A stretch of DNA of 64,000 bases from Candidatus Anstonellales archaeon. Lineage in GTDB: Archaea; Micrarchaeota; Micrarchaeia; Anstonellales; J096. The notes under the pieces are model-generated. The model made no database searches. It saw only the letters and a list, made by a program, of their open reading frames with translations, and had not been told where the DNA came from. The stretch spans positions 1-64,000 of the forward strand of contig JAWAFD010000001.1 of the NCBI GenBank assembly GCA_038890745.1. The letters are read 5' to 3'. The position numbers and the translations under genes are program-made. How positions within the stretch are numbered: the stretch's first letter is position 1; each line of letters starts with the position of its first letter. Positions 9,215 through 29,071 of this stretch are shown piece after piece.

Positions 9215-9270
9215 GCAACTGGATTTCAGAAAAGAGGTTTAAATACTTTTCTCATTCTTAATCTCAACTA

Positions 9271-9474
9271 GCCGGGGTGGCAGAGTGGCGATGCGGCCGG
9301 CTGCAGTCCGAACCCAGGGGGAGTTCCCCTAGGTTTGAGGTTCCTCCGTAACCCCCTTCGCTTTGGTGGGACGGCGGTTGGGCACCTAACCTGTGCCCTT
9401 ATGATTGCAGCTTTGCTCCAGGTTCCATTTTATTTGGAAACCGGCATAGAGGGGTTCGATTCCCTTCCCCGGCT
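9271..9474 (+). tRNA. tRNA-Cys(GCA) with ~133-nt intron at 37/38 (9307-9439)
   Basis: Acceptor GCCGGGG/CCCCGGC with U73; anticodon arm GCCGG-CT-GCA-G|A-CCGGC; T-arm AGGGG-TTCGATT-CCCTT. Confidence 0.85.
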
Positions 9475-9487
9475 TATCCAAACAGGG

Positions 9488-9605
9488 CGGAAGTAACTTC
9501 TGGGCGGAAGTTTTATTAGATTTAGGTTTTTAGAATACTAAACAATCTCTTAGAAAGGGTGATTAAAGGAATTGGCCGGAAGTAACTTCTGGGCGGAAGT
9601 TTTAT
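9488..9605. repeat. Two identical 29-bp palindromic repeats (9488-9516, 9577-9605) upstream of the ATPase
   Basis: CGGAAGTAACTTCTGGGCGGAAGTTTTAT occurs twice; the second copy runs into TATA-like TTTATATA (9601-9608). Confidence 0.9.
9526..9585 (+). pseudogene. 3'-terminal remnant of a paralogous AAA ATPase gene
   Basis: Translates VFRILNNLLERVIKGIGRK*, colinear with the C-terminus TYRISDPVLQTAIKKMGRK* of the ATPase at 9631-10683. Confidence 0.65.
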
Positions 9606-9630
9606 ATACCTTTCTTTTCCATATACATAC

Positions 9631-10683
9631 ATGCTCTTTGACCCAAAACCAAAAGACAGGGTAAGCGACCTTTTTAACTACAAAGAAGAGTTGAGGGCTC
9701 TCCTTTCTGGTATGGGGAGTAAAAAAATAATCATCATAAAAGGTGTAAGAAGAATCGGAAAAACCTCTCTTCTTAAAGTTGCGATGAATGAAACAAAGCT
9801 TCCATGTGTGTACATGGACGGAAGGTTTTATTCAAACAGAAAAGAGTTCATGAATGGATTAAAAGACGCCCTCCTTCAGCTTCATTCAAAAGCTTCCATA
9901 AGAGGAAAAATAGGGAAAATTCTTCCAAAAAAATTGGAGCTATATGGAATAAGGATAGGGTTGGCTTCCGAGGATCTAATAGAGCTCTCGAAGAAAGTAG
10001 ATAGAGAGATAGAAAAAGGGGTGTTGATAGTAGATGAAGCCCAGAAACTTAAAAGATTTGGTGGGGATGAAATCTTTGCGGCACTTTATGATGCCACGAA
10101 AAACATAAATTTTGTATTCTCTGGTTCAGAGATAGGGTTGATAGAAGAATTTATAGGTTCTTCTGCCGGTTCTTTATACGGAAGAGCCGTGGAAACAATA
10201 GAATTAAGGCGCCTTCAAAGAGAACAATCGCTTGAATTTTTGAGAAGAGGATTTTTGGAGAATAAAAAGGAGTGGAAAGAAGAGGAGATTGAAGAAGCAG
10301 TAGATGAATTAGACGGAATAATAGGATGGTTGACGCTATATGGGTATTTCAGACTTTCGAATACACACAAAACTGCTCTAAAAAGAATAAATGAAGAAGC
10401 AATAAAAATAGCAAAAGATGAACTAGAAGCATTTCTTAGAAACAAGCAAGAAGCGGGAAAAAGATATCTTATGATCTTAAAAGCAATCGCTGAAGCACCG
10501 CGCTCTTGGAGCGATATAAGAATGGTTATTGAAATTGAAGAGAAAAAAAGGATAAGCGAAGGCAGGATATTTGAGTACCTAAAAAATCTTATGGCGTATA
10601 GTTTGGTAGAAAAACGGGAGGGAACGTATAGAATATCGGATCCTGTTTTACAAACGGCAATTAAAAAAATGGGCCGGAAGTAA
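9631..10683 (+). CDS. Archaeal AAA+ ATPase with C-terminal winged helix
   Basis: MLFDPKPK start, Walker A GVRRIGKTS, Walker B IVDEAQ, FSGS and LYGR motifs, C-terminal Y.I.DP. Confidence 0.85.
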   Translation: MLFDPKPKDRVSDLFNYKEELRALLSGMGSKKIIIIKGVRRIGKTSLLKVAMNETKLPCVYMDGRFYSNRKEFMNGLKDALLQLHSKASIRGKIGKILPKKLELYGIRIGLASEDLIELSKKVDREIEKGVLIVDEAQKLKRFGGDEIFAALYDATKNINFVFSGSEIGLIEEFIGSSAGSLYGRAVETIELRRLQREQSLEFLRRGFLENKKEWKEEEIEEAVDELDGIIGWLTLYGYFRLSNTHKTALKRINEEAIKIAKDELEAFLRNKQEAGKRYLMILKAIAEAPRSWSDIRMVIEIEEKKRISEGRIFEYLKNLMAYSLVEKREGTYRISDPVLQTAIKKMGRK

Positions 10684-10694
10684 CTTCTGGGCGG
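10672..10694. repeat. Third copy of the ATPase-flanking repeat; contains the ATPase stop codon
   Basis: GGCCGGAAGTAACTTCTGGGCGG is identical to 9574-9596. Confidence 0.9.
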
Positions 10695-10698
10695 TCAT

Positions 10699-11286
10699 AT
10701 GTTTAAGCATGTGATTTTTGATTTGGATAATACGATTGTGGCTCTGAATGTAGAGTGGGATAGTGCAAGAAAAGAGGTTATTGAGTACATAAAACAGATT
10801 GGGGTTAGGATTGAAAGCGAGGAGCATTTTTCTCTTTGGGAGATGCCATTCAGAGTTCCGCAATTCAGGAAGCATAAAAAAGAAATAGACAAAATTTTTG
10901 AGAAGTGGGAAAGAAAAGCGATAGAGGAAGGAAAGCCACAAAAAATAGGATACGCTGTGGAGCTGATAGAAAAAATAAATGGAAAGGTTATGGGGATCGT
11001 CTCTAATAATACGCATTCAACAATAGAACTGATATTGGGGAATATTGGGATTAGGGATAAGTTTAAGTATGTAATCGGGAGGGATGACACTTTTGAAATA
11101 AAGCCACTTCCAGGAATTGTTGAGATGGCCATAAAGAAAAGTGGTGTGCCGAAAGAGGAGAGTTTGTTTGTTGGGGATAGTAGATGGGATTTTATTGCAG
11201 GAAGCAGTGCAGGTGTTCCGGTATTCATAATGAGGAACGAGGAGGATGCAAAAACTTTAGAATATATTTTAAATCTAACTCTATAA
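10699..11286 (+). CDS. HAD-superfamily hydrolase (phosphoglycolate phosphatase-like)
   Basis: FDLDNT motif I, VSNN, KP.P, FVGDS..D. Confidence 0.85.
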   Translation: MFKHVIFDLDNTIVALNVEWDSARKEVIEYIKQIGVRIESEEHFSLWEMPFRVPQFRKHKKEIDKIFEKWERKAIEEGKPQKIGYAVELIEKINGKVMGIVSNNTHSTIELILGNIGIRDKFKYVIGRDDTFEIKPLPGIVEMAIKKSGVPKEESLFVGDSRWDFIAGSSAGVPVFIMRNEEDAKTLEYILNLTL

Positions 11287-11300
11287 AAATAATAAACAAT

Positions 11301-11407
11301 AGCCCCGTCGTCTAGTGGTCAAGGATAGGAGGCTCTGGACCTCTTGACAGCGGTTCGAAGAGCCCTTTTTCCTGGCGGAAAGGGGTTTGGAAATCCGCTC
11401 GGGGCTA
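11301..11407 (+). tRNA. tRNA-Gln(CTG) with 34-nt intron at 59/60 (11360-11393)
   Basis: AGCCCCG/CGGGGCT acceptor; GGAGG-CT-CTG-GA-CCTCT anticodon arm; T-loop TTCGAA|T split by a BHB-forming insert. Confidence 0.9.
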
Positions 11408-11441
11408 TTTTTTAAAAATATTTACGCAAATAAACACTAGT

Positions 11442-12119
11442 ATGGACGCAAAGGAAGTATACAAATTACATATGGGAAATGTAAACTACCGGTTCTTCGG
11501 TTCAGGCATAGCCCACTATTCAAAATTCTTAGGTATAAAGGTAGAAGAGGTTATTAGGGAACGGATGCATAAAAAAGAAAGAGTTAGTATTTTGGATATA
11601 GGAACCGGAAACGGATTGTTCTTGAAAGAAATTGAAGAGAGATTCAAGAAAGTCGATGCTTATGGGATTACATTGAAGATGGATGGAAAACCAAAATCTA
11701 AAAAAATAATCATCTCTAATTGCGGAGAATGTATCCCATTCAAAGAGGGATGTTTTGACTTTGTTTTTTCTGTTATGACAGCTGTGTACATTCCTGACAT
11801 TACGAACTTGCTATTGGAAACAAGGAGGGTTATCAGCAATGATGGAACGGCATACATCCACTTGGGAGGTATATGTGATAGTAGAGTAAAAATTCAAAGC
11901 GGAAGTAATAGCGAGTATGTAAACATTGACCTTTTTCTTAGCATGTGCAATATAGGATGTATTAGAACATTACAGCGTATTGTTTCTACCGTTTACCGGC
12001 AGGACATAACAATATGCATATATAAAAATACAATGATACCGGAGCTTAGACACCTTGAGTCTAAATTTGAGGGTTACGATTGGAGCAACTATTTTATACC
12101 AACCGGTAGATATTTATAA
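11442..12119 (+). CDS. Class I SAM-dependent methyltransferase
   Basis: ILDIGTGNG motif I; PFKEGCFDFVFS. Confidence 0.75.
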   Translation: MDAKEVYKLHMGNVNYRFFGSGIAHYSKFLGIKVEEVIRERMHKKERVSILDIGTGNGLFLKEIEERFKKVDAYGITLKMDGKPKSKKIIISNCGECIPFKEGCFDFVFSVMTAVYIPDITNLLLETRRVISNDGTAYIHLGGICDSRVKIQSGSNSEYVNIDLFLSMCNIGCIRTLQRIVSTVYRQDITICIYKNTMIPELRHLESKFEGYDWSNYFIPTGRYL

Positions 12120-12121
12120 GA

Positions 12122-12688
12122 ATGAGCCCGCAAAAACCATACATGGATTGGAAAAAATTCAAAGAGGAGAAACTTTCTGAATTGAAAAAAGCGAAAGCAA
12201 ACGGCGAAGTGGATAAAGAAATTCTTGATTTGGTGCGCGCGATAAATAAAAAACAGAATTATGTTACAAGTTCAAGCTGCGCTGGAAGGATTCTTCTTTT
12301 GGAGGGAACGGTGAAGGGGTATGCGAAGCATTATGCAAAATGGCACTCTTTACCGGCAAAAAAAGAAATTGAAAATGCCGTGAAAGCATACAGAGGAAAG
12401 AAAATTCTCTGGTTAAGGGTGGAGCCTTTCATTCTGCATGTTTTTGCAAAGGACCTAGATTCTGCAATGGATTTTATGAAGAGAGCGAAAAATGCGGGGG
12501 TGAAGAGGGGTGGAATTCAATATTCGAAAAATTTTTATTTTATTGAAATACAAGGAACGGCTGGATTGAACATGCCTATAAATGTATGCAAATGCGATTT
12601 TGGGAAGGTGTATGGGATAATAAAAAGAATGCTTGTGGAAAATGAGCTCAGGAGAGGAATACTTAAAAAAGAGATGGCAAAAAAATAG
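12122..12688 (+). CDS. taw3: tRNA wyosine-pathway methyltransferase Tyw3/Taw3
   Basis: [16 protein letters not shown] and EPFILHV motifs. Confidence 0.85.
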
Positions 12689-12691
12689 CTT

Positions 12692-14440
12692 ATGCATGAA
12701 ATCCGCTCGCCGATTGTTGCTGTTCTTGGCCATGTTGACCATGGAAAGACCAGCATTCTTGATGCCATAAGGGGTTCAAGGGTTGCCGCAAAGGAAGCGG
12801 GCGGGATTACGCAGATGATAGGTGCAAGCTATGTTTCAAAGCAGGATATTGAAAATCTAAGCAGTGGGCTTGCTGAAAAACTAAAAATAAAGCTTGTCGT
12901 TCCGGGGCTACTTTTCATAGACACACCCGGCCATGAGGCATTCACGAATTTGAGGGATAGGGGAGGAAGCATAGCCGATATTGCAATACTTGTTGTGGAT
13001 GTGAATGAAGGGTTCATGCCCCAAACAATTGAGAGCATAAACATTTTGAAGAGGTACAAAACGCCCTTTGTTATCGCTGCAAACAAGATAGATATTTTGA
13101 GCGGGTGGAACAAGCAGAATACAAAAAGCTTTCTTGAAAGCCTTGGAAAACAGAGAGAAGATGTGAAACTAAAACTTGATGAAAAGATATACTCTATTGT
13201 TGCAAAATTAGGAGGGTATGGGTTTAACAGCGAAAGGTTTGATAGGGTTGGCGATTTTTCTAAGGAGGTTGCAATAATTCCAATATCCGCAAAAACACAT
13301 GAGGGGCTTGCAGAACTTCTTCTTCTCGTTGCAGGCCTGAGCCAAAAGTACCTCGAAAAGGAATTGTACATAAACAGGGATGAACCAGCAAAGGGAAGCA
13401 TAATTGAGGTTAAGGAAGAGAAGGGGATGGGAACAACAATAGATGCAATAATATATGATGGTGTTTTGAAAACTGGCGATGAATTTTACTTTTTAACCAA
13501 TAAGGGAGTGAAGAAAACAAAGATAAGAGCACTGCTATTACCGAATGTACGGGGCGGGGAGAAGTACACGCAGGTTGAAAAGATCGTTGCGGCTGCTGGG
13601 GTGAAAATAATCGCGCCAGAGCTTGATGGCGCCATCCCTGGGTCGCCATTTGCGGTTGTGGGTGCATCAAGCGAGGAGGAGATGAAAAAACAGCTTACTA
13701 GCATTGTTTTTGAAAAATCAGAAGTTGGGGTATATGTTAAGACAGATTCTTTGGGCAGCGCGGAGGCTTTGATAGCATTACTAAAGGAACATAACATACC
13801 GATTGCGAAAGTAAATATTGGTAGTGTAAGCAAGGAAGATGTTTTGTTTTCAAAAAGCATATCTGAGAAAAATAAATACCTTGGTGTGATTTTGGCATTC
13901 AACACAAGAACGCCGAGGGATGTTTTAAGGTTTGCTGAGGATGAAAAGGTAAGGATTATTGAGAACAATATAATATACAGGCTTGTTGAAAATTATGAGA
14001 GCTGGGTTGAGGAAGAGAAAGAGAAGGAGAAACGGGAGATGTTCTTAAAGCTTGGCTACCCTGCAAGAATAAAATTTTTGCCCGGATGCTGCTTCCGGCT
14101 TTCAAAACCTGCTGTTTTTGGGGTTGAGATTTTGGATGGAAAAATAAAACCAGGAGCAAAGATTATGGATAAGGAAGGAAATGTCTTGGGGGAGATAAAA
14201 GGGGTGCAGGAGAAAAAGGAGGTGCTGAATGAAGCGTGTAAGGGAATGCAGGTCGCGATAAGCGTTGATGAAATTGTAGTAAATAAAGACATTTGCGAAG
14301 GGGATATTCTTTACACTTATCTAACACAGGAAGAGATAGAAATGTGGAAGGAGAGGGAAGAGTTGCTTACTGATGATGCAAAATTCGCTTTGGAAGAAAT
14401 AAAAAAAATAATTTTGAAAAAAAGAATAGAAAAGAAATAG
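12692..14440 (+). CDS. infB: Translation initiation factor aIF5B (IF-2)
   Basis: [35 protein letters not shown]. Confidence 0.97.
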
Positions 14441-14441
14441 A

Positions 14442-14651
14442 CTAGGGTTTTTCTATTTCAAAGTTATCGTTGGTTGGGTCTACTGCCGGATCGTCTATTT
14501 GCAAATCAGAGTCACTTATACCCAAATCAATTCCGGTTGTTTTTTCCTCTGTCTCGCTTTTCTCCTTTGTTCCGATTTCTTTCGTGCTCGCTTTTACGCA
14601 ACCTGCAAAGATAAGGAGAAGGGAAATCACAAAAGCGAGAATGAGTTTCAT
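14442..14651 (-). CDS. Small putative lipoprotein
   Basis: Hydrophobic N-terminus with lipobox-like IFAGC; overlaps the stop of the upstream gene. Confidence 0.6.
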   Translation of the reverse strand: MKLILAFVISLLLIFAGCVKASTKEIGTKEKSETEEKTTGIDLGISDSDLQIDDPAVDPTNDNFEIEKP

Positions 14652-15571
14652 TCTTCTTTCCCTCCTTCCTTAACCCCACCTTTTATCTCATCCACTAGCT
14701 CTCTTATTTCATCGCTTGCTTCTAGTATGTATGCTCTTGCTTCCCTAAATTCTTCAGGGGTATAGTACTCATCCTCTCCTATGGTTACTGCTTTCTCAAG
14801 AAGCTCTCTTATTTCACCCACCCTCTCTTCATATCCATCTGTTTTTTCAAGAATTCTGTCCAAGAAGAGCGATAATCTTTCTTTATGGTATTTTGCCCAG
14901 AGGTAGAGATGATGCTCCCAGCGGGTTTTTCTTTCCTCAAGTAGAGCGGTGGTATCCTTATTTTTCAGTATTTTTTCCATATCGTCTGTGTTTTCCTTTG
15001 CTTCATCCAAAATCTTCTCAAGCTTGGTTGTATCATACCCTTTTTCGCGCATATTTTTTGCAACCTCCTCCCCAGCATCTATCCAGTATCTGTTAAGCTT
15101 TATCTCTGCGCTTATCCTGTTCCTTGTCGCTTTTACATGGCAGTTCACAAACTCTTTATGAGCAGAATCAAAATCTTCTTTAATCTGCGCCATTAATTCA
15201 GATTTATTTTCACCTGAGTTTTTGATTGCCTCAATCCTGGCATCGTGTATCGTCTGAACAGCTTCTCGGAAATAACCTTTTGTTTTTGCAACAGCCTCGC
15301 CGAATGCCTCAAGGTTGTTCTCATCCGCTGCCTGCTGGACCTCTTCCATGCTTAACTGAAGGTTGGCTATTATCTCATCATAGCTCTCTCCTGTGTAACC
15401 CTCCGAATACTCAAGCATTGTTACAAGAAAATCAACCCTGCATTCAAGCTGCGCCGCGTGCATCTCCATTACCGCCTGCCTCAGATCCATTCCAAATGTT
15501 TCGTTGCCTTCTGCCGCTACCAAACCAACCGCAGCAAAGAGCAACAAACACATCACAAAAAACTTTTTCAT
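14648..15571 (-). CDS. Secreted helical/coiled-coil hypothetical protein
   Basis: Likely start MKKFFVMCLLLFAAVGLVAA (signal peptide) after GGTGA RBS. The track's longer start runs through the repeat and tRNA. Confidence 0.75.
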   Translation of the reverse strand: MKKFFVMCLLLFAAVGLVAAEGNETFGMDLRQAVMEMHAAQLECRVDFLVTMLEYSEGYTGESYDEIIANLQLSMEEVQQAADENNLEAFGEAVAKTKGYFREAVQTIHDARIEAIKNSGENKSELMAQIKEDFDSAHKEFVNCHVKATRNRISAEIKLNRYWIDAGEEVAKNMREKGYDTTKLEKILDEAKENTDDMEKILKNKDTTALLEERKTRWEHHLYLWAKYHKERLSLFLDRILEKTDGYEERVGEIRELLEKAVTIGEDEYYTPEEFREARAYILEASDEIRELVDEIKGGVKEGGKEE

Positions 15572-15652
15572 ATTCTCACCGGTTTCTGGTTGAATTGAGC
15601 CATTTAAAAAGAAACTTATTTGAAAGCTTTCGAAAGCTTTAGGTCCCTTGTC

Positions 15653-15720
15653 TGCTCCTAATAATATAGGGGGGTAGAAGCGTGAGGGGGTCTGAGAATA
15701 AGTTAAAGTACCCCCTGGTC
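15653..15720 (-). repeat. Dispersed hairpin repeat immediately 3' of tRNA-Gly
   Basis: Minus strand GACCAGGGGGTACTTTAACTTATTCTCAGACCCCCTCACGCTTCTACCCCCCTATATTATTAGGAGCA; its two halves recur at 21307-21342 and ~21470-21507. Confidence 0.85.
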
Positions 15721-15723
15721 TAA

Positions 15724-15939
15724 TGCGGCCGCCGGGATTTCCACCAGACAAACCTCATAGGGGCTTCGCCCCTCGCGGTTTTTCCTTGATTTCCTCCCCC
15801 CTTCCCTCAAAAACATTGTTCAAAATGAGGGGGTTAAGGAGGATACCTAGAACCTAGGGGGAAACTTCCCCCTGGGTTTGGTTTCGGACCCGGGTCTCGA
15901 CCGTGGCAGGGTCGTGTCCTACCACTAGACTACGGCCGC
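15724..15939 (-). tRNA. tRNA-Gly(GCC) with ~145-nt intron at 59/60 (15738-15882)
   Basis: GCGGCCG/CGGCCGC acceptor; CGACC-CT-GCC-AC-GGTCG; T-arm CCGGG-TCCGAA|T-CCCGG. Confidence 0.85.
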
Positions 15940-16017
15940 TTGATTTTTCTTTTTCTCCCAAAACATATAAAAACTTTAAACCTTTAAAATCCAAACCCAA
16001 AAAGGAGTGTGAAAGGT

Positions 16018-16245
16018 ATGAACGAGAATAAAAAAACCGGTTCTCTATTGCCAAAGCCTGTGAATGAAGGTGATGAGCTAGATGTAGAGATTGTGAGCAA
16101 AGGAAAGAAGGACGGAGATGGAATAGCTAAGACAAAAGAAGGTTTTGTAATTATAGTAGAGGGAGGAAACGAAGTAGGAAAAAAGTATCATGTAAAAATA
16201 ACTAGAGTAGGGCTTACTGTTGCTTGGGCTAAAATTACAAACTGA
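16018..16245 (+). CDS. Single TRAM-domain RNA-binding protein
   Basis: PV.EG....V.I...G..GDGIAK..GFVI.V.G...G....VKI.RV pattern. Confidence 0.85.
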   Translation: MNENKKTGSLLPKPVNEGDELDVEIVSKGKKDGDGIAKTKEGFVIIVEGGNEVGKKYHVKITRVGLTVAWAKITN

Positions 16246-17488
16246 GCACCTCACCAAATTTTGGTGCAACAGCCTTTATCCCTTCTTTTTCTTCTATTTC
16301 TTTCGCAAAATTTTCCGGCGCATCCCCATGCACGCAAACAACCAACTCCGGATTAATGCTTCTTATCATTTTGTAAAGGTCCTCCCTTCCAGCATGAGCA
16401 GAGAAATCCAGATACTCAGCAGGTAAACCTACATCTAATTCGTATTCATCCACTTTTATTTTTCCATAATTTAAAAGTCTCCATCCATTCGTCCCCTCAA
16501 CGCTATATCCTGTAAATATTATTTTTGAATTTGGGAGGAGGCTCTTCAGATAGCCAAGGGCGGGACCTCCTTCAAGCATCCCTGCTGTTGCAACTATTAT
16601 TGATGGGTGCTTGGTTGCCTTCCCCCTCTCCCTAGCGCTTGCCACCATGTTCACGCTTTCTATTGATTTTTCAAAACCAGGAAAATCCTTTATGTATCCA
16701 GGATATTTCAGATATACTTTATTTACACTCGTCCCCATCCCATCAACATAAACAGGAATTTCTTTTTCGTATTTTCTTATTATCCTTATAATTTCCTGCG
16801 TCCTTCCAACTGCGAATGCGGGAAGAAGAACGTTTCCCCCATTTTCTATTGTTTCCCATATTTCCTGCATCAGCTGTTTTTCTAGCTCCTTCCTATTCGG
16901 ATGCTCTCTATCATAATAGGTCGATTCAATAATCAAAACATCCGCATCCTCAGGTATCTTCGCCCCTTTGTGAAGCTCTGTTTCCTCTATTTTGAAATCA
17001 CCAGTATAAAGCACGCTTTTTCCTTTGCTTTCTACCCTTAACATCGTAGCACCAGCAAGATGGCCTGCATCCATTATTTTTATTGAAAACTCCCCAACCC
17101 TTAAAATCTGCCCGTGTATTGCTGGTATCCAGTAGTTTTTTGCCTTTTCTATTGAGGTCTTTTTGTAAGGAAAATCATGGCCCTTTAATTTCGCAAGCTT
17201 CAAACTATCATTCCACAAAATTTCTGCAATATCTACTGTTGGTGGTGTTGCATACCACCTTACTTTTCCTTCATCAAACAACCTTGGGAGATAGCCAGAA
17301 TGGTCAAGATGCGCATGTGTTATGAACACCCCATCCGGAATTCTCGGCAGAGGCGCTGGGTATGCCGGCTTCTCCTCTTTTGTGAACACCTTTACCCCAT
17401 AGTCAAATAGAAGGGTTGTTTCCTCTCCTTCAAGAAAGAATGCACTTCTTCCTACTTCTCCTGCAGCTCCCAAAGAATATAATTTCAT
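16235..17488 (-). CDS. Metallo-beta-lactamase/beta-CASP ribonuclease (aCPSF2-like)
   Basis: GAAGEVGRS, THAHLDHSG, AGH, YTGD, ESTY, FSAH, VHGD. Confidence 0.9.
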   Translation of the reverse strand: MKLYSLGAAGEVGRSAFFLEGEETTLLFDYGVKVFTKEEKPAYPAPLPRIPDGVFITHAHLDHSGYLPRLFDEGKVRWYATPPTVDIAEILWNDSLKLAKLKGHDFPYKKTSIEKAKNYWIPAIHGQILRVGEFSIKIMDAGHLAGATMLRVESKGKSVLYTGDFKIEETELHKGAKIPEDADVLIIESTYYDREHPNRKELEKQLMQEIWETIENGGNVLLPAFAVGRTQEIIRIIRKYEKEIPVYVDGMGTSVNKVYLKYPGYIKDFPGFEKSIESVNMVASARERGKATKHPSIIVATAGMLEGGPALGYLKSLLPNSKIIFTGYSVEGTNGWRLLNYGKIKVDEYELDVGLPAEYLDFSAHAGREDLYKMIRSINPELVVCVHGDAPENFAKEIEEKEGIKAVAPKFGEVLSL

Positions 17489-17493
17489 GCTAT

Positions 17494-17928: not shown

Positions 17929-17988
17929 GTTGTAATTTATGGATTGTTAGTTTTTTAAACCTTTGGGTTGAATTTCTTCTGTGATAGT

Positions 17989-21119: not shown

Positions 21120-21132
21120 CCTCTCTTCCCTA

Positions 21133-21264
21133 TGCAGGGGAAGGGATTTTCGAACCTTTTCCGCTGAAGCGCTTTTTGTCAGCAAAAAGGGCTCTTCGAA
21201 CCCTCGAACCCACTAAGGGACTGGCTCCTGAAGCCAGCGCCTTTGACCACTTGGCGACCCCTGC
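21133..21264 (-). tRNA. tRNA-Leu(CAG) with 48-nt intron at 59/60 (21147-21194)
   Basis: GCAGGGG/CCCCTGC; CTGGC-TT-CAG-GA-GCCAG; long variable arm; TTCG/CGAA BHB helix. Confidence 0.9.
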
Positions 21265-21285
21265 AGCAAAATATTTTTCACGCAA

Positions 21286-21808
21286 CCTTTCAAAAACCTT
21301 TCGAAAGACCAGGGGGTACTTTAACTTTTTCTCAGACCCCCTGATGCGGTGAAACAACCCGAAGGGCTTCGGTGCGACCCAACCCACCTAAACTTCTGGG
21401 TCGCACTTGTTTCGCCGCATCACCTGCCTCTTCCACTAGCCAAGGGGGGACTTAAGCATATTCTTATTCCCCCCTCACGCTTCTACCCCCCTATCTTATT
21501 AGGAGCAAAGGGATTAGAAAAAGATGGGGGGTAGTAGAGTAAGGGGGTCTGCGATAAGCAATAGTACCCCCTAGTCTTCTGCCTCTTCCACTAGCCAAGG
21601 GGGGGCTTAAGCATATTCTTATTCCCCCCTCACGCTTCTACCCCCCTATCTTATTAGGAGCAAAAATTAGGGGGTATTACCCCCTGAGGGAAGAAAGTTT
21701 AGAAATGCGAAAAGGGGCTTTGGGGATGTTATCCCCAAATGAGTTTAAGAATAGCGAAGGGGGGCGAGGCGGAATAAGCGCCAGGGGGGTATTACCCCCC
21801 GGGGCTTA
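21286..21808. repeat. ~520-bp non-coding cluster of GC-rich hairpin repeats (REP/MITE-like)
   Basis: 86-bp direct repeat at 21424-21509 and 21579-21664 (1 mismatch); inverted copy at 21521-21576; AGGGGGTATTACCCCC hairpins at ~21669 and ~21783; homology to 15653-15720. Confidence 0.85.
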
Positions 21809-21813
21809 TTTGG

Positions 21814-23223
21814 TTAGAATTTTTTTCTTACTTTTGGCCCTTCGGGGGTATCAAGAATCTCGTACCCGCTTTCATTCAAAATTTTTCTTATTCTATCAGA
21901 AAGCTCAAATTGTTTTGCTTTTCTTAGCTCCTCCCTTATTGAAAGAACCGCATTCAGAAGTGGCTCTTCAGCCCCTTCACTTCCTTTCTCTTCTATCTCA
22001 ATCCCAAGAATAAAGAATACATCATTATAGAATTGCTTTGCAATCTTCAGCGCAGAATAGTCCATTTCCTTTCCTGCTATGTGTCTATTCACTTCGCTTA
22101 TAAAATCGAAGAAGGAAGCAACTGCCTTTGCGGTGTCGAAATCATTATCCATAGCCTCAAAAAACATGTTTTTTAGTTCATACATTTTCCTTCTGAATTC
22201 CGGATCCGGTCTGTTTGGTTTTTTGCTTTTTTCTGCCTCACTTAGTAGAACGAATCCTTCCTCTATTCTTCTCAGCGCAGCCGAAGCACTTTCAACATGC
22301 TTTTCTGAGTAGTCTATCGGACTGGAGTATTTTGTCATCACGAATAGAAGGCGGATTGCTTGAGGGCTATGCTTCGATAGCGCATCTTTTAGGGTTATAA
22401 AATTTCCTAAACTTTTGCTCATCTTCACTCCATTAACAGTAAGGAAGCCTGTATGAAGCCAGTATTTTACAAACTGAACCTTGAACGCGGCCTCGCTCTG
22501 TGCAATCTCATTCTCATGATGGGGGAATATAAGGTCCTTTGCACCACCATGGATATCGATCGTTCTGTTTTCTGTATACTTCATACTCATTGCAGAGCAT
22601 TCTATATGCCAGCCGGGTCTTCCGTACCCCCATGGGCTATCAAAACCAATGGGCTCTTCCCCTTTTTTTGTTTTTTTCCAAAGCGCAAAATCAACTGGGT
22701 TTTTCTTTGTTGGGTCTGGCTCTATCCGATGCTCTTTTTCTATCTCTTTTATTTTCTGTCCCGAGAGTTTTCCGTATTTCTTGAATTTCGCAACATTAAA
22801 ATAAACGCCTGTTTCAGTCTCGTAAGCATATCCATTCCTTATTATTTTCTTTATTATTTCGATTATTTCAGGGATATGCTCGGAAACTGCAGGGTAGAAA
22901 TCAGCACGGAGGATGTTTAGGGAATCAAAAAGAGAAAGGGCTTCGGAGTGGAAATGTTTAGAAAGCTCAAGAGGGCTTTTGTTTGTTTCCTTCGCACGGT
23001 TTATTATTTTGTCCTCAACATCCGTAATGTTCTGGATATGGAGGACATCGTACCCTTTGTACAGAAGATAGCGTTTGATTACATCAAAAGAAACATAGGT
23101 ACGCGCATGGCCTAGGTGGGTATGGTCATATGGAGTAAGGCCGCACACATACATAACAATCTTTTTACTGTGCGTGGGTGAGAAATCCTCAACTTTTTTT
23201 GTAAGCGTGTTGTATACTCTCAT
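21814..23223 (-). CDS. cysS: Cysteinyl-tRNA synthetase
   Basis: MYVCG, HLGH, GRPGWHIECSAM, FPHHENE, KMSKS. Confidence 0.97.
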   Translation of the reverse strand: MRVYNTLTKKVEDFSPTHSKKIVMYVCGLTPYDHTHLGHARTYVSFDVIKRYLLYKGYDVLHIQNITDVEDKIINRAKETNKSPLELSKHFHSEALSLFDSLNILRADFYPAVSEHIPEIIEIIKKIIRNGYAYETETGVYFNVAKFKKYGKLSGQKIKEIEKEHRIEPDPTKKNPVDFALWKKTKKGEEPIGFDSPWGYGRPGWHIECSAMSMKYTENRTIDIHGGAKDLIFPHHENEIAQSEAAFKVQFVKYWLHTGFLTVNGVKMSKSLGNFITLKDALSKHSPQAIRLLFVMTKYSSPIDYSEKHVESASAALRRIEEGFVLLSEAEKSKKPNRPDPEFRRKMYELKNMFFEAMDNDFDTAKAVASFFDFISEVNRHIAGKEMDYSALKIAKQFYNDVFFILGIEIEEKGSEGAEEPLLNAVLSIREELRKAKQFELSDRIRKILNESGYEILDTPEGPKVRKKF

Positions 23224-23816
23224 CTTTTCATCCCAAACAAAAACCTTAGTATCCTTATGGTTTCGTACATAAACCTTAATAAAAGCTCCACAGCTATCAT
23301 GAAAATTGCTATTTTGGGCGCCGAGCTCATTACTGCAAAAAAAGCCTTCTCTATGTCTACCGGAGCAGAAAGAAGAATGGATGGATCAAGCAGGATGGTA
23401 GCAAGAAATACAAGCGGGATGAGTTTTCCAACCTCCATGGAAACCTCTTCATTTATGTACGCAAGTATGCGCGTTGTGGATACAAGAAGGGCAGAAACGA
23501 GGATGGCATAATTTATATCATGCTCCCTTGTAAGAAAAACTATCATCACCGCTATGAAGAATGCCCAGAGAAAAACGTAGAGCGGGGTGAGCACTAGGGT
23601 TTTGATGAGAAATGAAAGCTCAGATATTGTTTTTTTCACAATTGCCAAGATTCCCCTCTCTGATTCTGTTTCATTAAACACAGAAATATCCCTTCTTGCA
23701 AGTTTTTTGTAGAAGAAAAAGATGAGATACGCATAGAACGCAAGGCTAACCGCAGAAACTAAGAAATATGCAAATTCAGAAGAAAGGAGAACCGAATTTA
23801 TGTAGCTTAGATCCAT
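23220..23816 (-). CDS. Multi-pass membrane protein
   Basis: Several hydrophobic helices; tightly packed with polC and cysS. Confidence 0.7.
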   Translation of the reverse strand: MDLSYINSVLLSSEFAYFLVSAVSLAFYAYLIFFFYKKLARRDISVFNETESERGILAIVKKTISELSFLIKTLVLTPLYVFLWAFFIAVMIVFLTREHDINYAILVSALLVSTTRILAYINEEVSMEVGKLIPLVFLATILLDPSILLSAPVDIEKAFFAVMSSAPKIAIFMIAVELLLRFMYETIRILRFLFGMKR

Positions 23817-23824
23817 ATCAGCAC

Positions 23825-26800
23825 CTACATGAAATCCGAGATTCCGGTTTGCTTTATCTTTTCATCTTCAAAAACATTTTTAATCTCTTTCCCAAGGAGA
23901 ACGAGCCTCTGTTTTAAGTAGTTCGGGAGCTGGAATCCATCAACAAGCTTCATGGATACATCGAAATATTTCTCTATTCCTCCCTGATGAATAGTAAGCG
24001 TTAGATTGCCTCCGCATTTGAGGCACTTTCCCACGAGCGGAACGCGCCGGTATTTTTCATTGCAATTTACACACCTAAAATCCTGTCTTGAGAACTTGCG
24101 CAGATTCCCGTACAAATCTGGAATGAAATGGCTTAGAACAAGCCGCTCCATCGCATCTTTTATATCAACTGCCCGTATTTTTTTCATGAGCGAAACCTCT
24201 GCCTGGACCTTTTCAGGCACAGAGCTCAATTTTACGTACGTTGTCCTCAGAACACCTTTATCTATAAATGAAGTTGGATGGGTGAATGGAATCTGAGAAT
24301 ATTGCTCTGGTTTTCCCAGCCGGTCTTTGATGCGAGGGAGGGAAACCTCATACGGCATTTTCATTTCCATGGCAGATTTATAGAATTCTAGTGGATAGGA
24401 TTCGACCGTTTCCATCTCATGAACCTCATCATCAACCTCTCTTGGGTCCAAAAAAACAGTAAGGACAAGAGGGGAATCCATCGTCCCTCCTCTTTTGTCG
24501 CTTAAAAAGTATTTTGAGAAGTTTATAAGGGCATCTAGTAGAAGCATAACTGCATCTTCATCACCATCCGCGTTCCTTCTCTTAGCGGTATGGAAGTATG
24601 GATGCGCATACCCAACATTCGCTTTTGTAAACCCTATCACCCTTGCGAGTACCCCGGCGCTTGTATGCGGGCTCAATCCAACAACAAGATGGCCAACTAA
24701 GTCCTCCTTATTTTTCAAATTATAGAAAGCCTCCATTTCATATAGATTTACGAGCATATCATCTATGAATTTTGAAATTCTAAAAAGATACTCTGCCGCT
24801 GGTTCTGAGAGCAAAATATCCTGAGGCTTGAGTGGGATGAGCTGATCCTCATTTTCTATGGGATTGCCGAGATAATCCCGCGTGTATCCAAGCTGTTTTA
24901 TTTTCTGAACACTAACACCTATCTCTCTAGGGGTGAAGTGGGTAAGGGGGAGGTCCGTTGCATCAAACCTTGCCGTTCCATCCCGGTAGACATAAACAGA
25001 ATGCTTCGCCCGGAGAAACCCCTTCTCAAGCCGCTCTGGAATTTTGTATGAGCTCATGAGACCCTTTACCCCCTTTATCTCAAAGGGCATGAACCCGACT
25101 ATTTTTTTTGTATTTTCCATAAGCTTCACTAGGTCTATGGGGATGCGATCTGTTTTTTTTCCACCTTTCTCTTCAACAACAGCCTTTCCTCCGCAGAGAT
25201 GGCATTTTGTATAGAAAGTAAGCTGTCTGCATTTTGTGCATCTGAGAACGGCAACTTCTATATTTATGTTTTTTACACCCTCCCTTTCTTTAAGCATCGT
25301 ATATATTCTAGATATGCTCCTTGTTTTGTCAGAACCGGTTGGAAAAAGAACATTCGGGGAGCCATCCATCTCCCTCTCATCTGCCTTCTCAGGCCTGCCC
25401 ATTCTTGCACCTATAAAAGTCCCTCCTTTGTCCCGAATCTCAACCCCGCATGCAGCAGAAAGAATTCTCGTCACATCCTCCTCCTCAACGCTCACATTTT
25501 TGAAATTGGACAGAGTAAAAAGAAGGGCAACAGCAGTATCATTTTCAATCAAAACCTTTCCATCCCTAAGCTTATGCTCTGCACCTATTCTTTCCAAAAA
25601 TCTTTTTTCAGGACCATTTTCAACAACAAAAACACCATTTTCAAACTTTCCGGAATTTATCCAGGTTGCGAGGGCAGTGAGCTCTTCTTTGTTTAAATCT
25701 GTCCAGTAGAAAAGATAATCTGGGTGAAGGGGGAGGGAATGTTTTTTTGAGAATTCTATTGCCTCTTTTGCCGAAGAAAATTTTTTTGGCTCAACCCCCT
25801 TTGCCTTTACTTCTTCCACCCACCATTCCTCGCAGTATCCTGGCGGGAGAAGAGGGGTGTTTGATTTCAGAAAATCCCCAAATGGACAGAGGATATCGCC
25901 AAGAAAAAGAATTTCTCTGACTTCATCCTTTATTTTTTCTGCCTCCTGTATTGTTCTTACCTTAACAACATCTCCATTATCAAGAAGAACTATTGGGGGC
26001 TCTATGTTCTCGTTTGCAGCAACAACGCATCCCTTCCCCGGTCTTTCAAGCTTAAGCTGGGTCCCGTATGCGATGAAACCATCAAGAAGAACCATCGCAG
26101 CAGGGTGGATATTTTTTGCCATTATCCCGTTCGTCCTGCTTCTTCCATATCTTAATCTAAACCCACCTTTGGCCATTGGGTAGGAAAAAACAGGCCTTCC
26201 TGCCACAAGCCCATCTAAATAATCTGGATTTGGCTTAATCTCTATTTTTTTCTCCCCGGTTTTTATTTTTATTATTTTCTCAAGCCATGTCCATTCGATC
26301 CCAAGCTTTTTTGTGTATTTCAAAACCTTTGCAGCCTTTTGCGCTATACCCTCGCATATCACGAGCGGAACACCGCCCCTTATTTTATTTGTCTCGACCC
26401 GCTCCAAATCCCTATTTACAGAAACCTCAACATCCTCGGTTGTTGGTTCGCCATCTATACAAACCGGGCAGTTTTCCACTATTATTCTTATGTGCTCTTC
26501 TGGTGGTTTGTATTGAAGATGAGCAACAGCAGCTTCATAGGTATTGATTTCTTCAACATACCGGTCAACTTCTTTTTGAAGAGGTCTGTAGTCACCAATC
26601 CCTGCTTCTCTTCTCGCTAAATCAGCAAGCACAACGCTTAGTGCTGCAACCGTTCCACCTGCGCTTCTTATAGGCCCAGCAAAATATATGGCAACATACT
26701 TACTACCATCCGGGTTTTGCTTTATTTTTATTTTTGCGATTCCTTCTGTCGGTGCAACAAGAACTCCTTCTGTAAGGAGGGCAACCCCTACCCTCACTGC

Positions 26801-27109
26801 CTTCTCTATCCTTTCCTCAATGCTTCTTGAAGGAACGATCTTTCCTCTCGCAATCTCCTTCGCAAGCTCAAACGCTATATCCTCCCTGCTCTTTCCTTCC
26901 TTTTCCCTTCTCCGTATCTCATCGGCAATCTCTATCCCAAGGATACCCTCAACCCTCGCAGCAACATCCTTTGCTACCGTTATCTCAACCTCCTCTGTTG
27001 GGTCAAATCCCTTTGCCCTTGCTTTTGAGGCTACGGAGTATGCTTTTTCAAGCTCTGCCCTGAGCGAATCAAAGTATTTTTTTGTTTCCTCATCTGCAAC
27101 TATTTCCAT
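23825..27109 (-). CDS. polC: DNA polymerase D large subunit DP2
   Basis: YFAGPIRSAGGT, GGFRLRYGRSR, KRRNADGDED, C-terminal Zn finger; no intein seen. Confidence 0.97.
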   Translation of the reverse strand: MEIVADEETKKYFDSLRAELEKAYSVASKARAKGFDPTEEVEITVAKDVAARVEGILGIEIADEIRRREKEGKSREDIAFELAKEIARGKIVPSRSIEERIEKAVRVGVALLTEGVLVAPTEGIAKIKIKQNPDGSKYVAIYFAGPIRSAGGTVAALSVVLADLARREAGIGDYRPLQKEVDRYVEEINTYEAAVAHLQYKPPEEHIRIIVENCPVCIDGEPTTEDVEVSVNRDLERVETNKIRGGVPLVICEGIAQKAAKVLKYTKKLGIEWTWLEKIIKIKTGEKKIEIKPNPDYLDGLVAGRPVFSYPMAKGGFRLRYGRSRTNGIMAKNIHPAAMVLLDGFIAYGTQLKLERPGKGCVVAANENIEPPIVLLDNGDVVKVRTIQEAEKIKDEVREILFLGDILCPFGDFLKSNTPLLPPGYCEEWWVEEVKAKGVEPKKFSSAKEAIEFSKKHSLPLHPDYLFYWTDLNKEELTALATWINSGKFENGVFVVENGPEKRFLERIGAEHKLRDGKVLIENDTAVALLFTLSNFKNVSVEEEDVTRILSAACGVEIRDKGGTFIGARMGRPEKADEREMDGSPNVLFPTGSDKTRSISRIYTMLKEREGVKNINIEVAVLRCTKCRQLTFYTKCHLCGGKAVVEEKGGKKTDRIPIDLVKLMENTKKIVGFMPFEIKGVKGLMSSYKIPERLEKGFLRAKHSVYVYRDGTARFDATDLPLTHFTPREIGVSVQKIKQLGYTRDYLGNPIENEDQLIPLKPQDILLSEPAAEYLFRISKFIDDMLVNLYEMEAFYNLKNKEDLVGHLVVGLSPHTSAGVLARVIGFTKANVGYAHPYFHTAKRRNADGDEDAVMLLLDALINFSKYFLSDKRGGTMDSPLVLTVFLDPREVDDEVHEMETVESYPLEFYKSAMEMKMPYEVSLPRIKDRLGKPEQYSQIPFTHPTSFIDKGVLRTTYVKLSSVPEKVQAEVSLMKKIRAVDIKDAMERLVLSHFIPDLYGNLRKFSRQDFRCVNCNEKYRRVPLVGKCLKCGGNLTLTIHQGGIEKYFDVSMKLVDGFQLPNYLKQRLVLLGKEIKNVFEDEKIKQTGISDFM

Positions 27110-27113
27110 ACTA

Positions 27114-28547
27114 TCACACGAATTTTAGTGTTGAAAGCTTTCCGGTTTTCAGATTGTATACTGGCACCTCACCAGGGGTCGGAACATGGCCTTGCTTTAT
27201 CTGATATTCTGTCTGCGCTTGGAACGTTCCTGAGTTTATGAGAAGGGTCCCGCGGTATTCCATGTATCCGTTTTTGTGAACATGGCCTATGTGCATGACA
27301 TCGGGCACCTCATCGATTACCATATAATCAACCTCTTCTGGTATGATTGGGTTTTCACCATAGAAAGGGGAGAGATGCCTTCTTATGAGGTATTCCTTCA
27401 TTACCTCTTCTGGCTTTGTGTAGCTGAGTTTGGGGATGTTTGCTATGAATGAATCTAAGGATGTGCCATGATAAATAATGTGGGAAACCCCATCTATGAA
27501 AACCCTCGCAGGACTTCCAACCTTGATCACATCGCTTTTTATCAAGTCATTTTCTATAGCCGGCATGGGCTCCCCTCTTCTCACAGCATCATGATTTCCT
27601 GGGATTATGATTACAGATATATACTCCGGGAGCATGCCTACAAAATCATCGAACATCTCATACTGCTTTTCAATATCCTTAACCACCAGCTCCTTCTCTT
27701 GATTTGGGTAGATGCCTATCCCATCAACAATATCACCAGCAACAACCAAGTATTTTATTTTTCCAGCCCTTTTGTCTTTTTTTATGTAATTTAAAAATTT
27801 TTCAAACGAACCCGCGAGGAACTTGTTGCTTCCGAAATGGATATCGGAAACATACGCAACCTCCAAATCCCTTTCGCTCTTATTCCTGTTCCTCTGCAGA
27901 GGAACATCAGGCCATTCAAAATCATCAGCAATAAGAAGAGGATGGAGAACCTTTCCATAGAACGCAATTATGTCATCTTTCACAATTCTTTTTGCATTCT
28001 CAAAAATTTTTTCATTATTTTTTGGTATAACAACTTTGTATACTCCAGTCAGGTCTTCCACTATTACCAGAAGGTTTCCTTTTGCGGTTGTGCTTTTTTT
28101 GTAAACCATCCCTATAATTTTAACCTTCTCCTGATTCCTGTCTTTTAGCTCTGCTATCTCCATCTCAGCATACCCGGTCTTGCTCTCAAAAAAAAGCCGG
28201 CGCATTTTTTTATATCTGTTCCTAAAATACTCTATGAAATTCTCTACTTTGCCAGTAGTCCTGCTCTTCCCAGTAATGTCTTTTTTATAATCTATTGAAA
28301 TTTCAGGGGAATATTCTTTTGCCTCCGGTGCTTTTTCTCCTCTTTTTACTATTACCTCCTCTTTTTTCTCTGCCTCTTTTTCCTTTTCTCTCTTCTCTTT
28401 TTCTTTTATTATTCCCTCGACATCTTCTTTTGTGATGAGCGGTTTGTTCAGCGATAGTACTGCATGTATGAGCTCATGCTTTCCTTTCAGAATCTCCTCT
28501 GCATCCAAAGTAATCCTTATTCCTTTCTCTGAGAGTTCCTTTATCAT
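27114..28547 (-). CDS. polB: DNA polymerase D small subunit DP1 (3'-5' exonuclease)
   Basis: SDIHFGS, AGDIVDGIGIYP, PGNHD, GHVH, NSGTFQ; adjacent to DP2. Confidence 0.95.
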   Translation of the reverse strand: MIKELSEKGIRITLDAEEILKGKHELIHAVLSLNKPLITKEDVEGIIKEKEKREKEKEAEKKEEVIVKRGEKAPEAKEYSPEISIDYKKDITGKSRTTGKVENFIEYFRNRYKKMRRLFFESKTGYAEMEIAELKDRNQEKVKIIGMVYKKSTTAKGNLLVIVEDLTGVYKVVIPKNNEKIFENAKRIVKDDIIAFYGKVLHPLLIADDFEWPDVPLQRNRNKSERDLEVAYVSDIHFGSNKFLAGSFEKFLNYIKKDKRAGKIKYLVVAGDIVDGIGIYPNQEKELVVKDIEKQYEMFDDFVGMLPEYISVIIIPGNHDAVRRGEPMPAIENDLIKSDVIKVGSPARVFIDGVSHIIYHGTSLDSFIANIPKLSYTKPEEVMKEYLIRRHLSPFYGENPIIPEEVDYMVIDEVPDVMHIGHVHKNGYMEYRGTLLINSGTFQAQTEYQIKQGHVPTPGEVPVYNLKTGKLSTLKFV

Positions 28548-28792
28548 CCTTTTATACCCTCTAGTGCAGATAGGATTGCCCAAATTTGGGTTCTGGCATG
28601 AGCGGGTAGGTTGACATCCTCGCTTACTTCTTGGATTATGTATATCGCTGCGCTTATGCGAACCTTAAGTTCCTCTGTCCCTCCGAGACGAACCTTTGCC
28701 TCCTCCAGTGCTCTTCTGACATTTCTCGGCACAGAAAAATCCTCCAGAAGGCTGTTGATCATCTCTATAATCTCTGCAACCTCTTTCTCCAT
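28544..28792 (-). CDS. UPF0147 family protein
   Basis: D.SVPRNVRR, D.NLPAHARTQIW. Confidence 0.85.
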   Translation of the reverse strand: MEKEVAEIIEMINSLLEDFSVPRNVRRALEEAKVRLGGTEELKVRISAAIYIIQEVSEDVNLPAHARTQIWAILSALEGIKG

Positions 28793-28883
28793 CTCACCAC
28801 CCCACTTTACCAAAAAATATGCTGGCAGTCTATTTTGTGCGCAAGTATTTTTATAGGTTTTCAGACCGCGACCAGATTTATAG

Positions 28884-29071
28884 TAGCGGGGGGTGGATTT
28901 GAACCACCGACCTCCGGGTCTCCCACCCCTCATTTGTGAGGGATTTTGAAGGCATCCGTGCCCAAACCTCCTAAAAACATTAGGGGGTTGAAGCTAGGGG
29001 GACTGCCTACTACTCTTAGGCTCCCCCTGGCTTATGAGCCCGGCGGGAACTCCAAACTCCCCTACCCCGCT
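28884..29071 (-). tRNA. Initiator tRNA-Met(CAT) with ~113-nt intron at 37/38 (28920-29032)
   Basis: A1-U72 AGCGGGG/CCCCGCT; three G-C pairs in CCGGG-CT-CAT-A|A-CCCGG; CTCA/TGGG central helix. Confidence 0.9.

Follow-up and report, generated by a model that had tools for sequence, protein, structure and literature searches.

Hairpin-forming repeats of several families were detected at the tRNA genes of a Candidatus Anstonellales archaeon of the Micrarchaeota (genome G000; 989.5 kb in five contigs, ~41% G+C), including three tRNA genes within the first 64 kb of its contig C1, the stretch analysed here as the window. These three genes, for Cys, Gly(GCC) and initiator Met (iMet), are each interrupted by an intron that contains one or more of the repeat units, which we call modules (Table 1). 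An archaeal signal recognition particle RNA also lies in the window and was its only match in an Rfam 15 search at the gathering threshold. For comparison we used two sister species, G001 and G002, which together with G000 make up the three genomes of the genus, and the more distant genomes G004, G005, G007, G008, G013, G025, G026, G028 and G033. The distribution of the repeats suggests that hairpin families (A, B, D, E, F, M and others) have multiplied only at tRNA loci in this genus, and that they may have been copied, swapped and rearranged between tRNA genes at the DNA level.

Table 1. tRNA genes and repeat modules located in the window, in order of position
Feature	Position	Strand	Details
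tRNA-Cys(GCA)	9271..9473	+	exons 9271-9307 and 9440-9473; 132-nt intron 9308-9439 at 37/38
Module A copy in Cys intron	9311..9357	+	hairpin with G5/C4-5 stem and CCTCC...CCCCC tail; nhmmer 38.4 bits
Partial module E in Cys intron	9350..9404	+	nhmmer (E) 24.6 bits; 25/25 matches to C1:313832, C2:249106 and C2:249185
tRNA-Gln(CTG)	11301..11406	+	34-nt F-type T-loop intron 11360-11393
Module B copy 3' of tRNA-Gly(GCC)	15658..15721	+	antisense to the tRNA, 4 nt 3' of it; nhmmer 61.3 bits
tRNA-Gly(GCC)	15725..15939	-	145-nt intron 15738-15882, T-loop 59/60
K element, 3' part of Gly intron	15744..15794	-	K-turn-like hairpin
Module A copy, 5' end of Gly intron	15823..15878	-	nhmmer 67.6 bits; covariance model R1 90 bits
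tRNA-Leu(CAG)	21134..21264	-	48-nt F-type T-loop intron 21147-21194
Module array upstream of tRNA-Leu(CAG)	21293..21811 (~520 bp)	-	four B hits (three sense to the tRNA, one antisense)
tRNA-iMet(CAT)	28885..29071	-	113-nt intron 28921-29033 at 37/38; H helix CUCA/UGGG by eye
Module M (iMet-type hairpin element)	28965..29032	-	nhmmer M matches: iMet, Arg(CCT) intron, Val(TAC) 3' flank
Elongator tRNA-Met(CAT)	37929..38129	+	~92-nt 37/38 intron and 34-nt F-type T-loop intron
tRNA-Leu(CAA)	46388..46568	-	F-like 37/38 intron and F-type T-loop intron, read by eye

The Cys and Gly(GCC) introns share module A. The first-pass annotation of this DNA had described one multi-hairpin element common to all three introns, and each string that it quoted is present where it was placed. 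The likeness of the Cys and Gly introns is real: their Smith-Waterman score was 63, compared with 17.2 ± 2.6 for dinucleotide shuffles, was reached by 0/1000 of these and covers a block of ~54 nt, and a covariance model of the shared module (R1), built from eight copies, scored 65.9 bits on Cys over 9305-9368. The iMet intron did not hold its place as a third member, with pairwise scores against Cys and Gly that were reached by 62/1000 and 119/1000 shuffles; under R1 it scored 22.6 bits (E = 6.8e-4 in 132 kb), and it was absent genome-wide at E <= 0.01. It does keep module A's order of short motifs, and on this resemblance a distant kinship of its element, module M, with module A is possible. 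Relatives of M lie in the 37/38 intron of tRNA-Arg(CCT), directly 3' of tRNA-Val(TAC) and, in many copies, in G001 and G002. We therefore name M a sister family of A and not a demonstrated member of it.

Module copies, counted by iterated nhmmer from coordinate-defined seeds, were found throughout the genome. Module A has 11 distinct copies in G000, five strong ones in G002 and one in G001, so further copies of the element do exist. Eight of those in G000 lie in introns, one in the 37/38 intron of Cys and seven in T-loop introns (Gly-GCC, Ser-GGA, Ser-CGA, Thr-CGT, Glu-CTC, Trp and Gly-CCC); the other three are in arrays 3' of Val-GAC, Ala-TGC and Leu-GAG, none occurs elsewhere, and all are in the sense orientation of the tRNA. 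Module B gave 52 hits: nine in introns, 32 at most 700 nt downstream of tRNA genes (26 antisense, six sense), five upstream and six within ~420 nt of contig ends. Module D, an 81-nt palindrome, has 16 distinct copies, of which seven are in introns, six in flank arrays, two at contig ends and one, partial, elsewhere. Module E is a 79-nt unit repeated in tandem within the introns that Leu-TAG and Leu-TAA carry at 37/38, with a part in Cys, module F makes up short T-loop introns, module H is a further family, and a 118-nt unit lies 3' of Arg-GCG and Phe.

Most copies sit directly 3' of tRNA genes, starting 2-16 nt past the discriminator. Because tRNA genes with 700 nt on each side amount to only ~7% of the genome by our estimate, this confinement to tRNA loci is extreme. 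Self-comparison of the genome likewise revealed repeat hot spots mostly at tRNA genes; the largest repeat region, C3:30867-35531, holds no rRNA or tRNA. Introns had been proposed as the safe haven of the element, and they are not its only one, as just 9/52 B hits are intronic and 37 lie within 700 nt outside tRNA genes, in addition to the six at contig ends. Introns are thus one of three tolerated sites at tRNA loci. The copies lie inside bulge-helix-bulge (BHB) introns at 37/38 and at 59/60 in the T loop, and immediately next to tRNA genes, on the 3' or the 5' side, they form arrays that are tandem or nested.

The tRNA genes themselves were located with our own split-tolerant finder, which returned 73 candidates; 40 were accepted by eye, and three from other tools and one added later bring the census to 44 genes. 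Thirty-five are clearly interrupted and seven uninterrupted, and two were left unassigned (Ser-TGA, with a run of N, and Val-TAC, partly read). T-loop introns at 59/60 are present in 26/44 genes. ARAGORN recovered one of the window's seven tRNAs and, when permitted to place introns, 20 genome-wide, versus at least 44 by the census, and the Rfam tRNA model gave 31 genomic matches at E <= 1. Most of the tRNA genes thus escape finders run at default settings, and tRNAs will be under-called in annotations of genomes like this one. The search turned up a single gene per anticodon, that for Cys included; the interrupted genes must therefore yield working tRNAs, from which we infer that these introns are spliced.

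Many of the introns are copies of one another. Of 42 introns extracted, two were joined when they were >=80% identical across no less than half the length of the shorter one; 26/42 fell into families that span different tRNAs (20/42 at >=90% identity), as against none in each of 20 shuffled sets. Identity reaches 99% between introns of tRNAs for different amino acids. Two families hold introns of both sites: in one, six T-loop introns are grouped with the 37/38 introns of Glu-TTC and Ser-CGA, and in the other, the T-loop introns of Ile-TAT and Pro-CGG with that of His at 37/38. The picture of a small non-coding family that behaves as mobile or copied DNA inside introns predicted to be endonuclease-spliced is borne out.

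The ends of the T-loop introns follow one geometry. We checked BHB motifs by script on 24 of them, reading those of iMet and Cys by eye. In 24/24 the T stem forms the outer helix and two 3-nt bulges carry the cuts at 59/60, nt 54-57 pair 4/4, counting G·U, with the four bases just before the final two of the intron, and the intron ends form an inner helix h' of at least 3 bp. The first base of the intron's H strand tracks position 57, being T in 14/14 introns with A57 and C (five) or T (five) with G57, with no mismatches. Gly(GCC) shows the strict hBHBh' geometry at its junctions (H 4/4, bulges AA|A and AA|T), and the iMet junction combines its H helix with a weak h'. An unconstrained fold of the pre-tRNAs gave no cloverleaf for Cys or iMet and was not used for those junctions. 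Two short repeats flanking introns, TGCAG (at part of the Cys intron) and GGTTCGAA (at F-type T-loop introns), were considered as target-site duplications and rejected, because CTGCAG and TTCGAA are palindromic and the apparent repeat is the loop's pairing strand in the BHB helix. The conserved T-loop bases (54-57, TTCR) would make this loop the main landing site by pairing with a YGRR at the intron 3' end; any T-loop intron would therefore be spliceable in any tRNA without adaptation, and the 59/60 preference suggests that the conserved loop acts as a universal splice socket.

The enzymes for such splicing are encoded. EndA (375 aa, with the Pfam domains tRNA_int_endo and tRNA_int_endo_N) is a full-length homologue of PDB 4FZ2 (E = 2.2e-88), which the accessible text of its source identifies as the ε2 endonuclease of ARMAN-2 (PMC3488258), and it is 87% identical to proteins of metagenome-assembled genomes labelled Candidatus Micrarchaeales/Micrarchaeota; the ligase RtcB is also encoded (580.7 bits). 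A second EndA-like open reading frame, C1:152186-152629 (+), encodes 147 aa and scores 39 bits to the catalytic-domain family. Its catalytic histidine is missing by eye, and the protein may be a structural subunit.

Comparison with the other genomes revealed that intron gain is recent, as close relatives are intron-free or carry another intron. Gly(GCC) has an A-type intron in G000 and G002, where gene and intron together are 91% identical over 219 nt, an unrelated 44-46-nt intron at the same site in G001, and no intron in five genomes of other genera. The Cys intron contains A and part of E in G000 and E units without A in G002, and the Cys exon matches lie only 12-14 nt apart in G004, G007 and G008. 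At iMet, the M-type intron of G000 corresponds to ~36 nt between exon matches in G002, and the exon matches abut in 12/18 genomes outside the genus. F-type T-loop introns of G000 stand against module A in Ile-TAT and Met of G002 and in Pro-TGG of G001, and the A+B intron of Thr-CGT against an M-type intron in G001, with exons 98% identical. Leu-GAG carries an H+D intron in G000 and another composite in G002, and is intron-free in G004 and G005. Module A is also found in Trp, Gly-GCC and Glu-CTC of G002. In the more distant genomes G026, G013 and G028, A-like elements lie directly 3' of tRNA genes, and the flank may therefore be the older position. Co-conversion of the T stem with the intron was rejected: GTGGG is present in all four H+D hosts and already in the intron-free Leu-GAG of G004 and G005.

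This turnover bears on whether the modules are functional structured RNAs, with excised (possibly circular) introns or 3' trailers that bind a protein, guide modification, or act as terminators or processing signals. The retention of the Gly(GCC) intron between G000 and G002 fits such a role, as do the confinement of modules to tRNA transcription units, the orientation bias of B and the presence of RtcB, which is able to circularise excised introns; C/D-box-like motifs seen by eye in the neighbouring Met intron make intron-borne small RNAs plausible. Stems had been noted as kept with varying loops, which is borne out in part: 94.9% of cells pair and 14/15 pairs show double changes across genomes, in an alignment that was fitted to the model, contains weak hits chosen by it and leans to structure. 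Such maintained stems also fit a role for the RNA, but a DNA palindrome preserves compensatory changes as well, and covariation cannot separate RNA from DNA. Against a function, orthologous tRNAs carry unrelated introns in sister species and none in other genera, so that no tRNA needs a given module, and copy number, nesting, tandem arrays and inversion look like repeat dynamics. No Rfam family matches any of the modules: a search of 14 repeat-bearing loci with Rfam 15 at E <= 0.1 returned only tRNA hits and sub-threshold microRNA hairpin hits. We consider a functional RNA quite unlikely as the main explanation.

Several rearrangements point to events at the DNA level. The T-loop introns of Leu-GAG and Ser-GCT have identical flanks (35/35 and 52/53), and the central 81-nt D between them is inverted, matching its reverse complement at 80/81 positions. 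Module D ends in ~16-nt terminal inverted repeats with one mismatch (seven perfect in the copy measured); by eye, it is nested in B with an apparent extra CC, and one filled-versus-empty comparison of D shows an apparent 2-bp (CC) duplication. Modules A, B and M have internal hairpins and lack terminal inverted repeats. Nesting recurs in the 566-nt gene of tRNA-Trp(CCA), C4:58114-58679 (-), which contains a ~87-nt 37/38 intron and a 407-nt T-loop intron that combines module A with four B hits, three of them sense and one antisense; one of these B units encloses a D. Similarly, in the array upstream of tRNA-Leu(CAG) one B has a D within it (21342-21422), and a unit of the 118-nt type occupies ~21700-21811. 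Pieces of tRNA genes have been copied as well: a unit with a tRNA-Ala(CGC) 3'-end fragment occurs three times downstream of that gene (C1:179294-179794), each time beside a hairpin unit, and once 3' of tRNA-Ala(GGC) (C2:313861-313901). The repeated part is the T arm plus acceptor strand, with 25 nt identical to the gene by eye, and comparable duplications of tRNA 3' ends adjoin tRNA genes in G004 and G028. The inversion, the nesting and the Ala fragments are DNA rearrangements, not products of RNA copying.

Spread through RNA would have excised introns re-inserted by reversed endonuclease and ligase steps and then copied back to DNA. Pairing of the intron 3' end with the conserved T loop would let an intron RNA dock on any tRNA, and the copies of A and B within introns are in sense, yet D occurs in both orientations within otherwise identical introns, most copies lie outside introns with many of those antisense, and no reverse transcriptase hit was obtained. 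This route is highly improbable.

The tRNA 3' fragments are also what a second kind of history would leave behind, in which a virus or plasmid integrase repeatedly inserted tRNA-targeting integrative elements that then lost DNA, so that the repeats would be scars and miniature derivatives: hairpin ends and tRNA 3' duplicates stayed beside the tRNAs, and some later recombined into introns. The position of most copies immediately after the discriminator agrees with this, as do the repeats of the Ala(CGC) 3' part at its own locus and at Ala(GGC), the 3'-end duplications in G028 and G004, the A-like elements directly 3' of tRNAs in G026 and G013, and a model for Caldiarchaeum that, in the accessible text, ties intron gain to an integrating element (PMC3293823). 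However, the inserted units are only ~70-120 nt, and integration scars leave unexplained the 24/24 exact BHB ends at the T loop and the families common to 37/38 and 59/60.

Searches for an enzyme or a donor bear on the same history. A mobiliser elsewhere in the genome had been suggested, and none of the eight families searched was found: Y1_Tnp, OrfB_IS605, DDE_Tnp_1, DDE_3, rve, RVT_1 and Phage_integrase gave 0 hits, and PF07282 only weak zinc-ribbon hits (transposase families were searched as PF01797, PF01385, PF01609, PF13358, PF00665 and PF07282). Y1_Tnp is present in 8/41 genomes of the order and 0/3 of the genus. Exact patterns of modules A and B matched 0 stretches in viral contigs, and the A pattern 0 in metagenome contigs. 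With no Phage_integrase hit in the genome and no match of the A and B patterns in viral contigs, we regard integrative scars as unlikely. The failure of the Phage_integrase family to match anything means that not even a XerA-type recombinase was detected in this assembly, which is 93.8% complete, and an enzyme borne by an element could thus be absent from it. A degenerate 17-mer of the D terminal repeat found 117 metagenome and 57 viral stretches; 0/174 of these loci hold any module by nhmmer, and we rejected the matches as chance.

Taken together, we suggest that these are probably selfish or neutral hairpin repeats, copied among tRNA loci at the DNA level and tolerated because splicing removes them. 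They would persist in introns because the broad-specificity ε2 endonuclease and RtcB remove anything that lies between correct BHB motifs, and they would be copied by recombination or by an unseen trans-acting enzyme. This is the "intron transposition" kind known from Thermoproteales in a new modular form. Several points weigh against this explanation. No transposase, integrase or reverse transcriptase of the families searched was found, and the genome is 93.8% complete in five contigs with four contig ends inside repeats. By eye, the Cys 37/38 intron has no strict BHB as one unit and fits a relaxed motif or two nested steps, because the perfect GCAG partner of the anticodon loop sits 35 nt before the 3' exon. 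T5 runs within introns could terminate transcription, and the tRNA census depends on our own finder and on picks by eye. In addition, neutral junk predicts neither the strict confinement to tRNA loci nor the 3'-flank bias of B towards antisense, and these could reflect a function or a targeting mechanism.

A bolder version takes up the T-loop geometry. The introns could be self-legitimising mobile elements whose own ends carry the intron half of the BHB, including the 3' YGRR, so that an insertion at 59/60 would be spliceable at once and the tRNA flanks would serve as module reservoirs. We hold this to be possible and put it forward tentatively. If true, no system before it would have allowed the arrival of archaeal tRNA introns to be traced one copy at a time, and an as yet unrecognised activity that directs insertion or recombination to tRNA genes would be required.

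Other features of these loci were noted along the way. The 3' part of the Gly(GCC) intron is occupied by the K element, a ~50-nt unit with a GC hairpin between GA/GA dinucleotides and a 3-nt bulge (kink-turn-like by eye), followed by GAGGT. It is single-copy in G000 and multi-copy in G001, G002 and other families; query positions 147-197, which correspond to it, match G001, G002, G025, G026 and G033 at 83-96%. In G025 and G026 the element is intergenic, and in G026 it sits just upstream of where a phosphoenolpyruvate-synthase-like gene starts; it may serve as a leader or ribosome-binding cassette that is portable, or else as a site for L7Ae. The 37/38 intron of elongator tRNA-Met(CAT) carries a box C (GTGATGA), a C'-like box (GATGAT) and a box D (CTGA) by eye, as intron-borne C/D guide RNAs do; the C and C' motifs are kept in the G002 orthologue, and the intron has no Rfam match at gathering score.

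Further tRNA observations concern genes outside the window. tRNA-Val(GAC) (C1:141697-141808), mis-typed by ARAGORN as Leu(CAA), carries an intron in the D-arm region, as tRNA-Val(TAC) (C4:~91700-91780) probably does too. A further probable tRNA-Ser, additional to the 44, lies at ~C2:227,700, and the module of the Trp anticodon intron recurs twice around it, at C2:227680-227880. We also considered a pentatricopeptide repeat (PPR) protein of 524 aa, C2:173749-174450 (-), with seven or eight near-identical 34-residue PPR motifs, as a partner of the modules. The PPR code would read it as binding UUGUGAU(R), and the candidate was rejected: this sequence was found 186 times in the genome versus ~190 expected, shows no enrichment near tRNAs (ten occurrences within 700 nt) and forms no part of the modules.

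The same DNA is present in four hot-spring metagenome DNA runs, and no RNA run was found to contain 9200-19100. Over 9200-29100 these gave short contigs with breaks at repeats, a depth ~9-fold up over 21152-21815, and no usable filled-versus-empty alleles. In run X4, from a related strain (~98% identical), position 9482 is followed in one contig by six different letters and then by 10675, which amounts to a ~1.2-kb difference directly 3' of tRNA-Cys. Contig C43 of G001 links a tRNA-Cys 5' exon to a tRNA-iMet 3' exon only through tandem E-module repeats and a run of N, which reflects either a scaffold collapsed over the repeats or a genuine rearrangement.

Hairpin repeats copied into the introns and flanks of most tRNA genes give a direct view of how archaeal tRNA introns are gained and swapped. 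The first-pass annotation had rated the element as its best candidate for an undescribed system, and the kind proves to be known already. In Thermoproteales, intron families common to different tRNAs were gained after speciation, by a mechanism that the accessible text of a review calls unknown and presumes to act at the DNA level (PMC4090602). In the available text of a preprint, which clusters introns in its own way, families at >=80% identity that cross tRNAs take in 28.3% of 272 Thermoproteales introns, and 1.5% of introns in Asgard archaea (preprint 10.64898/2026.10.13.758758). As far as those texts go, near-identical introns in tRNAs with different anticodons are common to both cases, and 26/42 here can be set beside 28.3% as a rough comparison only, as the procedures differ. 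The present case differs from Thermoproteales in being a Micrarchaeota (DPANN) lineage with an ε2 rather than an (αβ)2 enzyme, and in its introns, which are long composites (131-407 nt) of discrete modules. These modules also make up arrays beyond the tRNA genes, one of them, a palindrome bounded by terminal inverted repeats, occurs in nested and in inverted form, and the T-loop site 59/60 dominates (26/44 genes). The source study of the transposed intron families of Thermoproteales is reportedly Fujishima et al. 2010 (Mol Biol Evol 27:2233).

Miniature inverted-repeat transposable elements (MITEs) and repeats of the repetitive extragenic palindromic and bacterial interspersed mosaic element types are short, non-coding, hairpin-forming and multi-copy, and occur nested and in tandem. 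Module D may resemble them in that it ends in ~16-nt terminal inverted repeats and, by eye, shows an apparent duplication of CC. Here, however, no cognate transposase was found in the genome, with Y1_Tnp in none of the three genomes of the genus; modules A and B lack terminal inverted repeats, and copies sit at tRNA loci and are not spread over intergenic DNA. In Caldiarchaeum subterraneum, intron gain is attributed, in the accessible part of the report, to a 1.8-kb integrating element with a recombinase (PMC3293823). Going by that part, both cases show tRNA fragments duplicated beside tRNA genes and intron gain over a short evolutionary time, whereas the units here are 70-120 nt and no recombinase was found in the genome.

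A further comparison is with ARMAN-2 (Candidatus Micrarchaeum acidiphilum), whose enzyme, according to the available text, cleaved BHB motifs of both the strict and the relaxed form in vitro, at 37/38 and 59/60 (PMC3239211). It belongs to the same phylum, its EndA matches over the full length, and introns lie at 37/38 and 59/60 with several per gene; by contrast, the two introns assayed there were 13 and 25 nt, and the available text speaks neither of intron families common to several tRNAs nor of repeats beyond tRNA genes or intron copying (PMC3239211). A full-text literature search of open-access papers and preprints found no description of copied or modular intron repeats in Micrarchaeota. 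The 2026 Asgard census, in its available text, also describes a state in which most tRNA genes are interrupted, many are missed by standard finders and introns lie at BHB-competent sites, and it identified no general way in which introns arrive (preprint 10.64898/2026.10.13.758758). The route is left open in that text, whereas copying between tRNA genes dominates here.

Already known, then, are the shared intron families of Thermoproteales and the highly disrupted tRNAs with an ε2 enzyme of ARMAN-2; new here are the long modular composite form, the modules outside genes, a palindrome that occurs nested and inverted, and the way in which the T-loop site dominates. With introns up to 99% identical, unrelated introns at the same site in sister species, free-standing arrays and an inverted palindrome, this genus offers very recent, datable events for the question of how archaeal tRNA genes gain introns.

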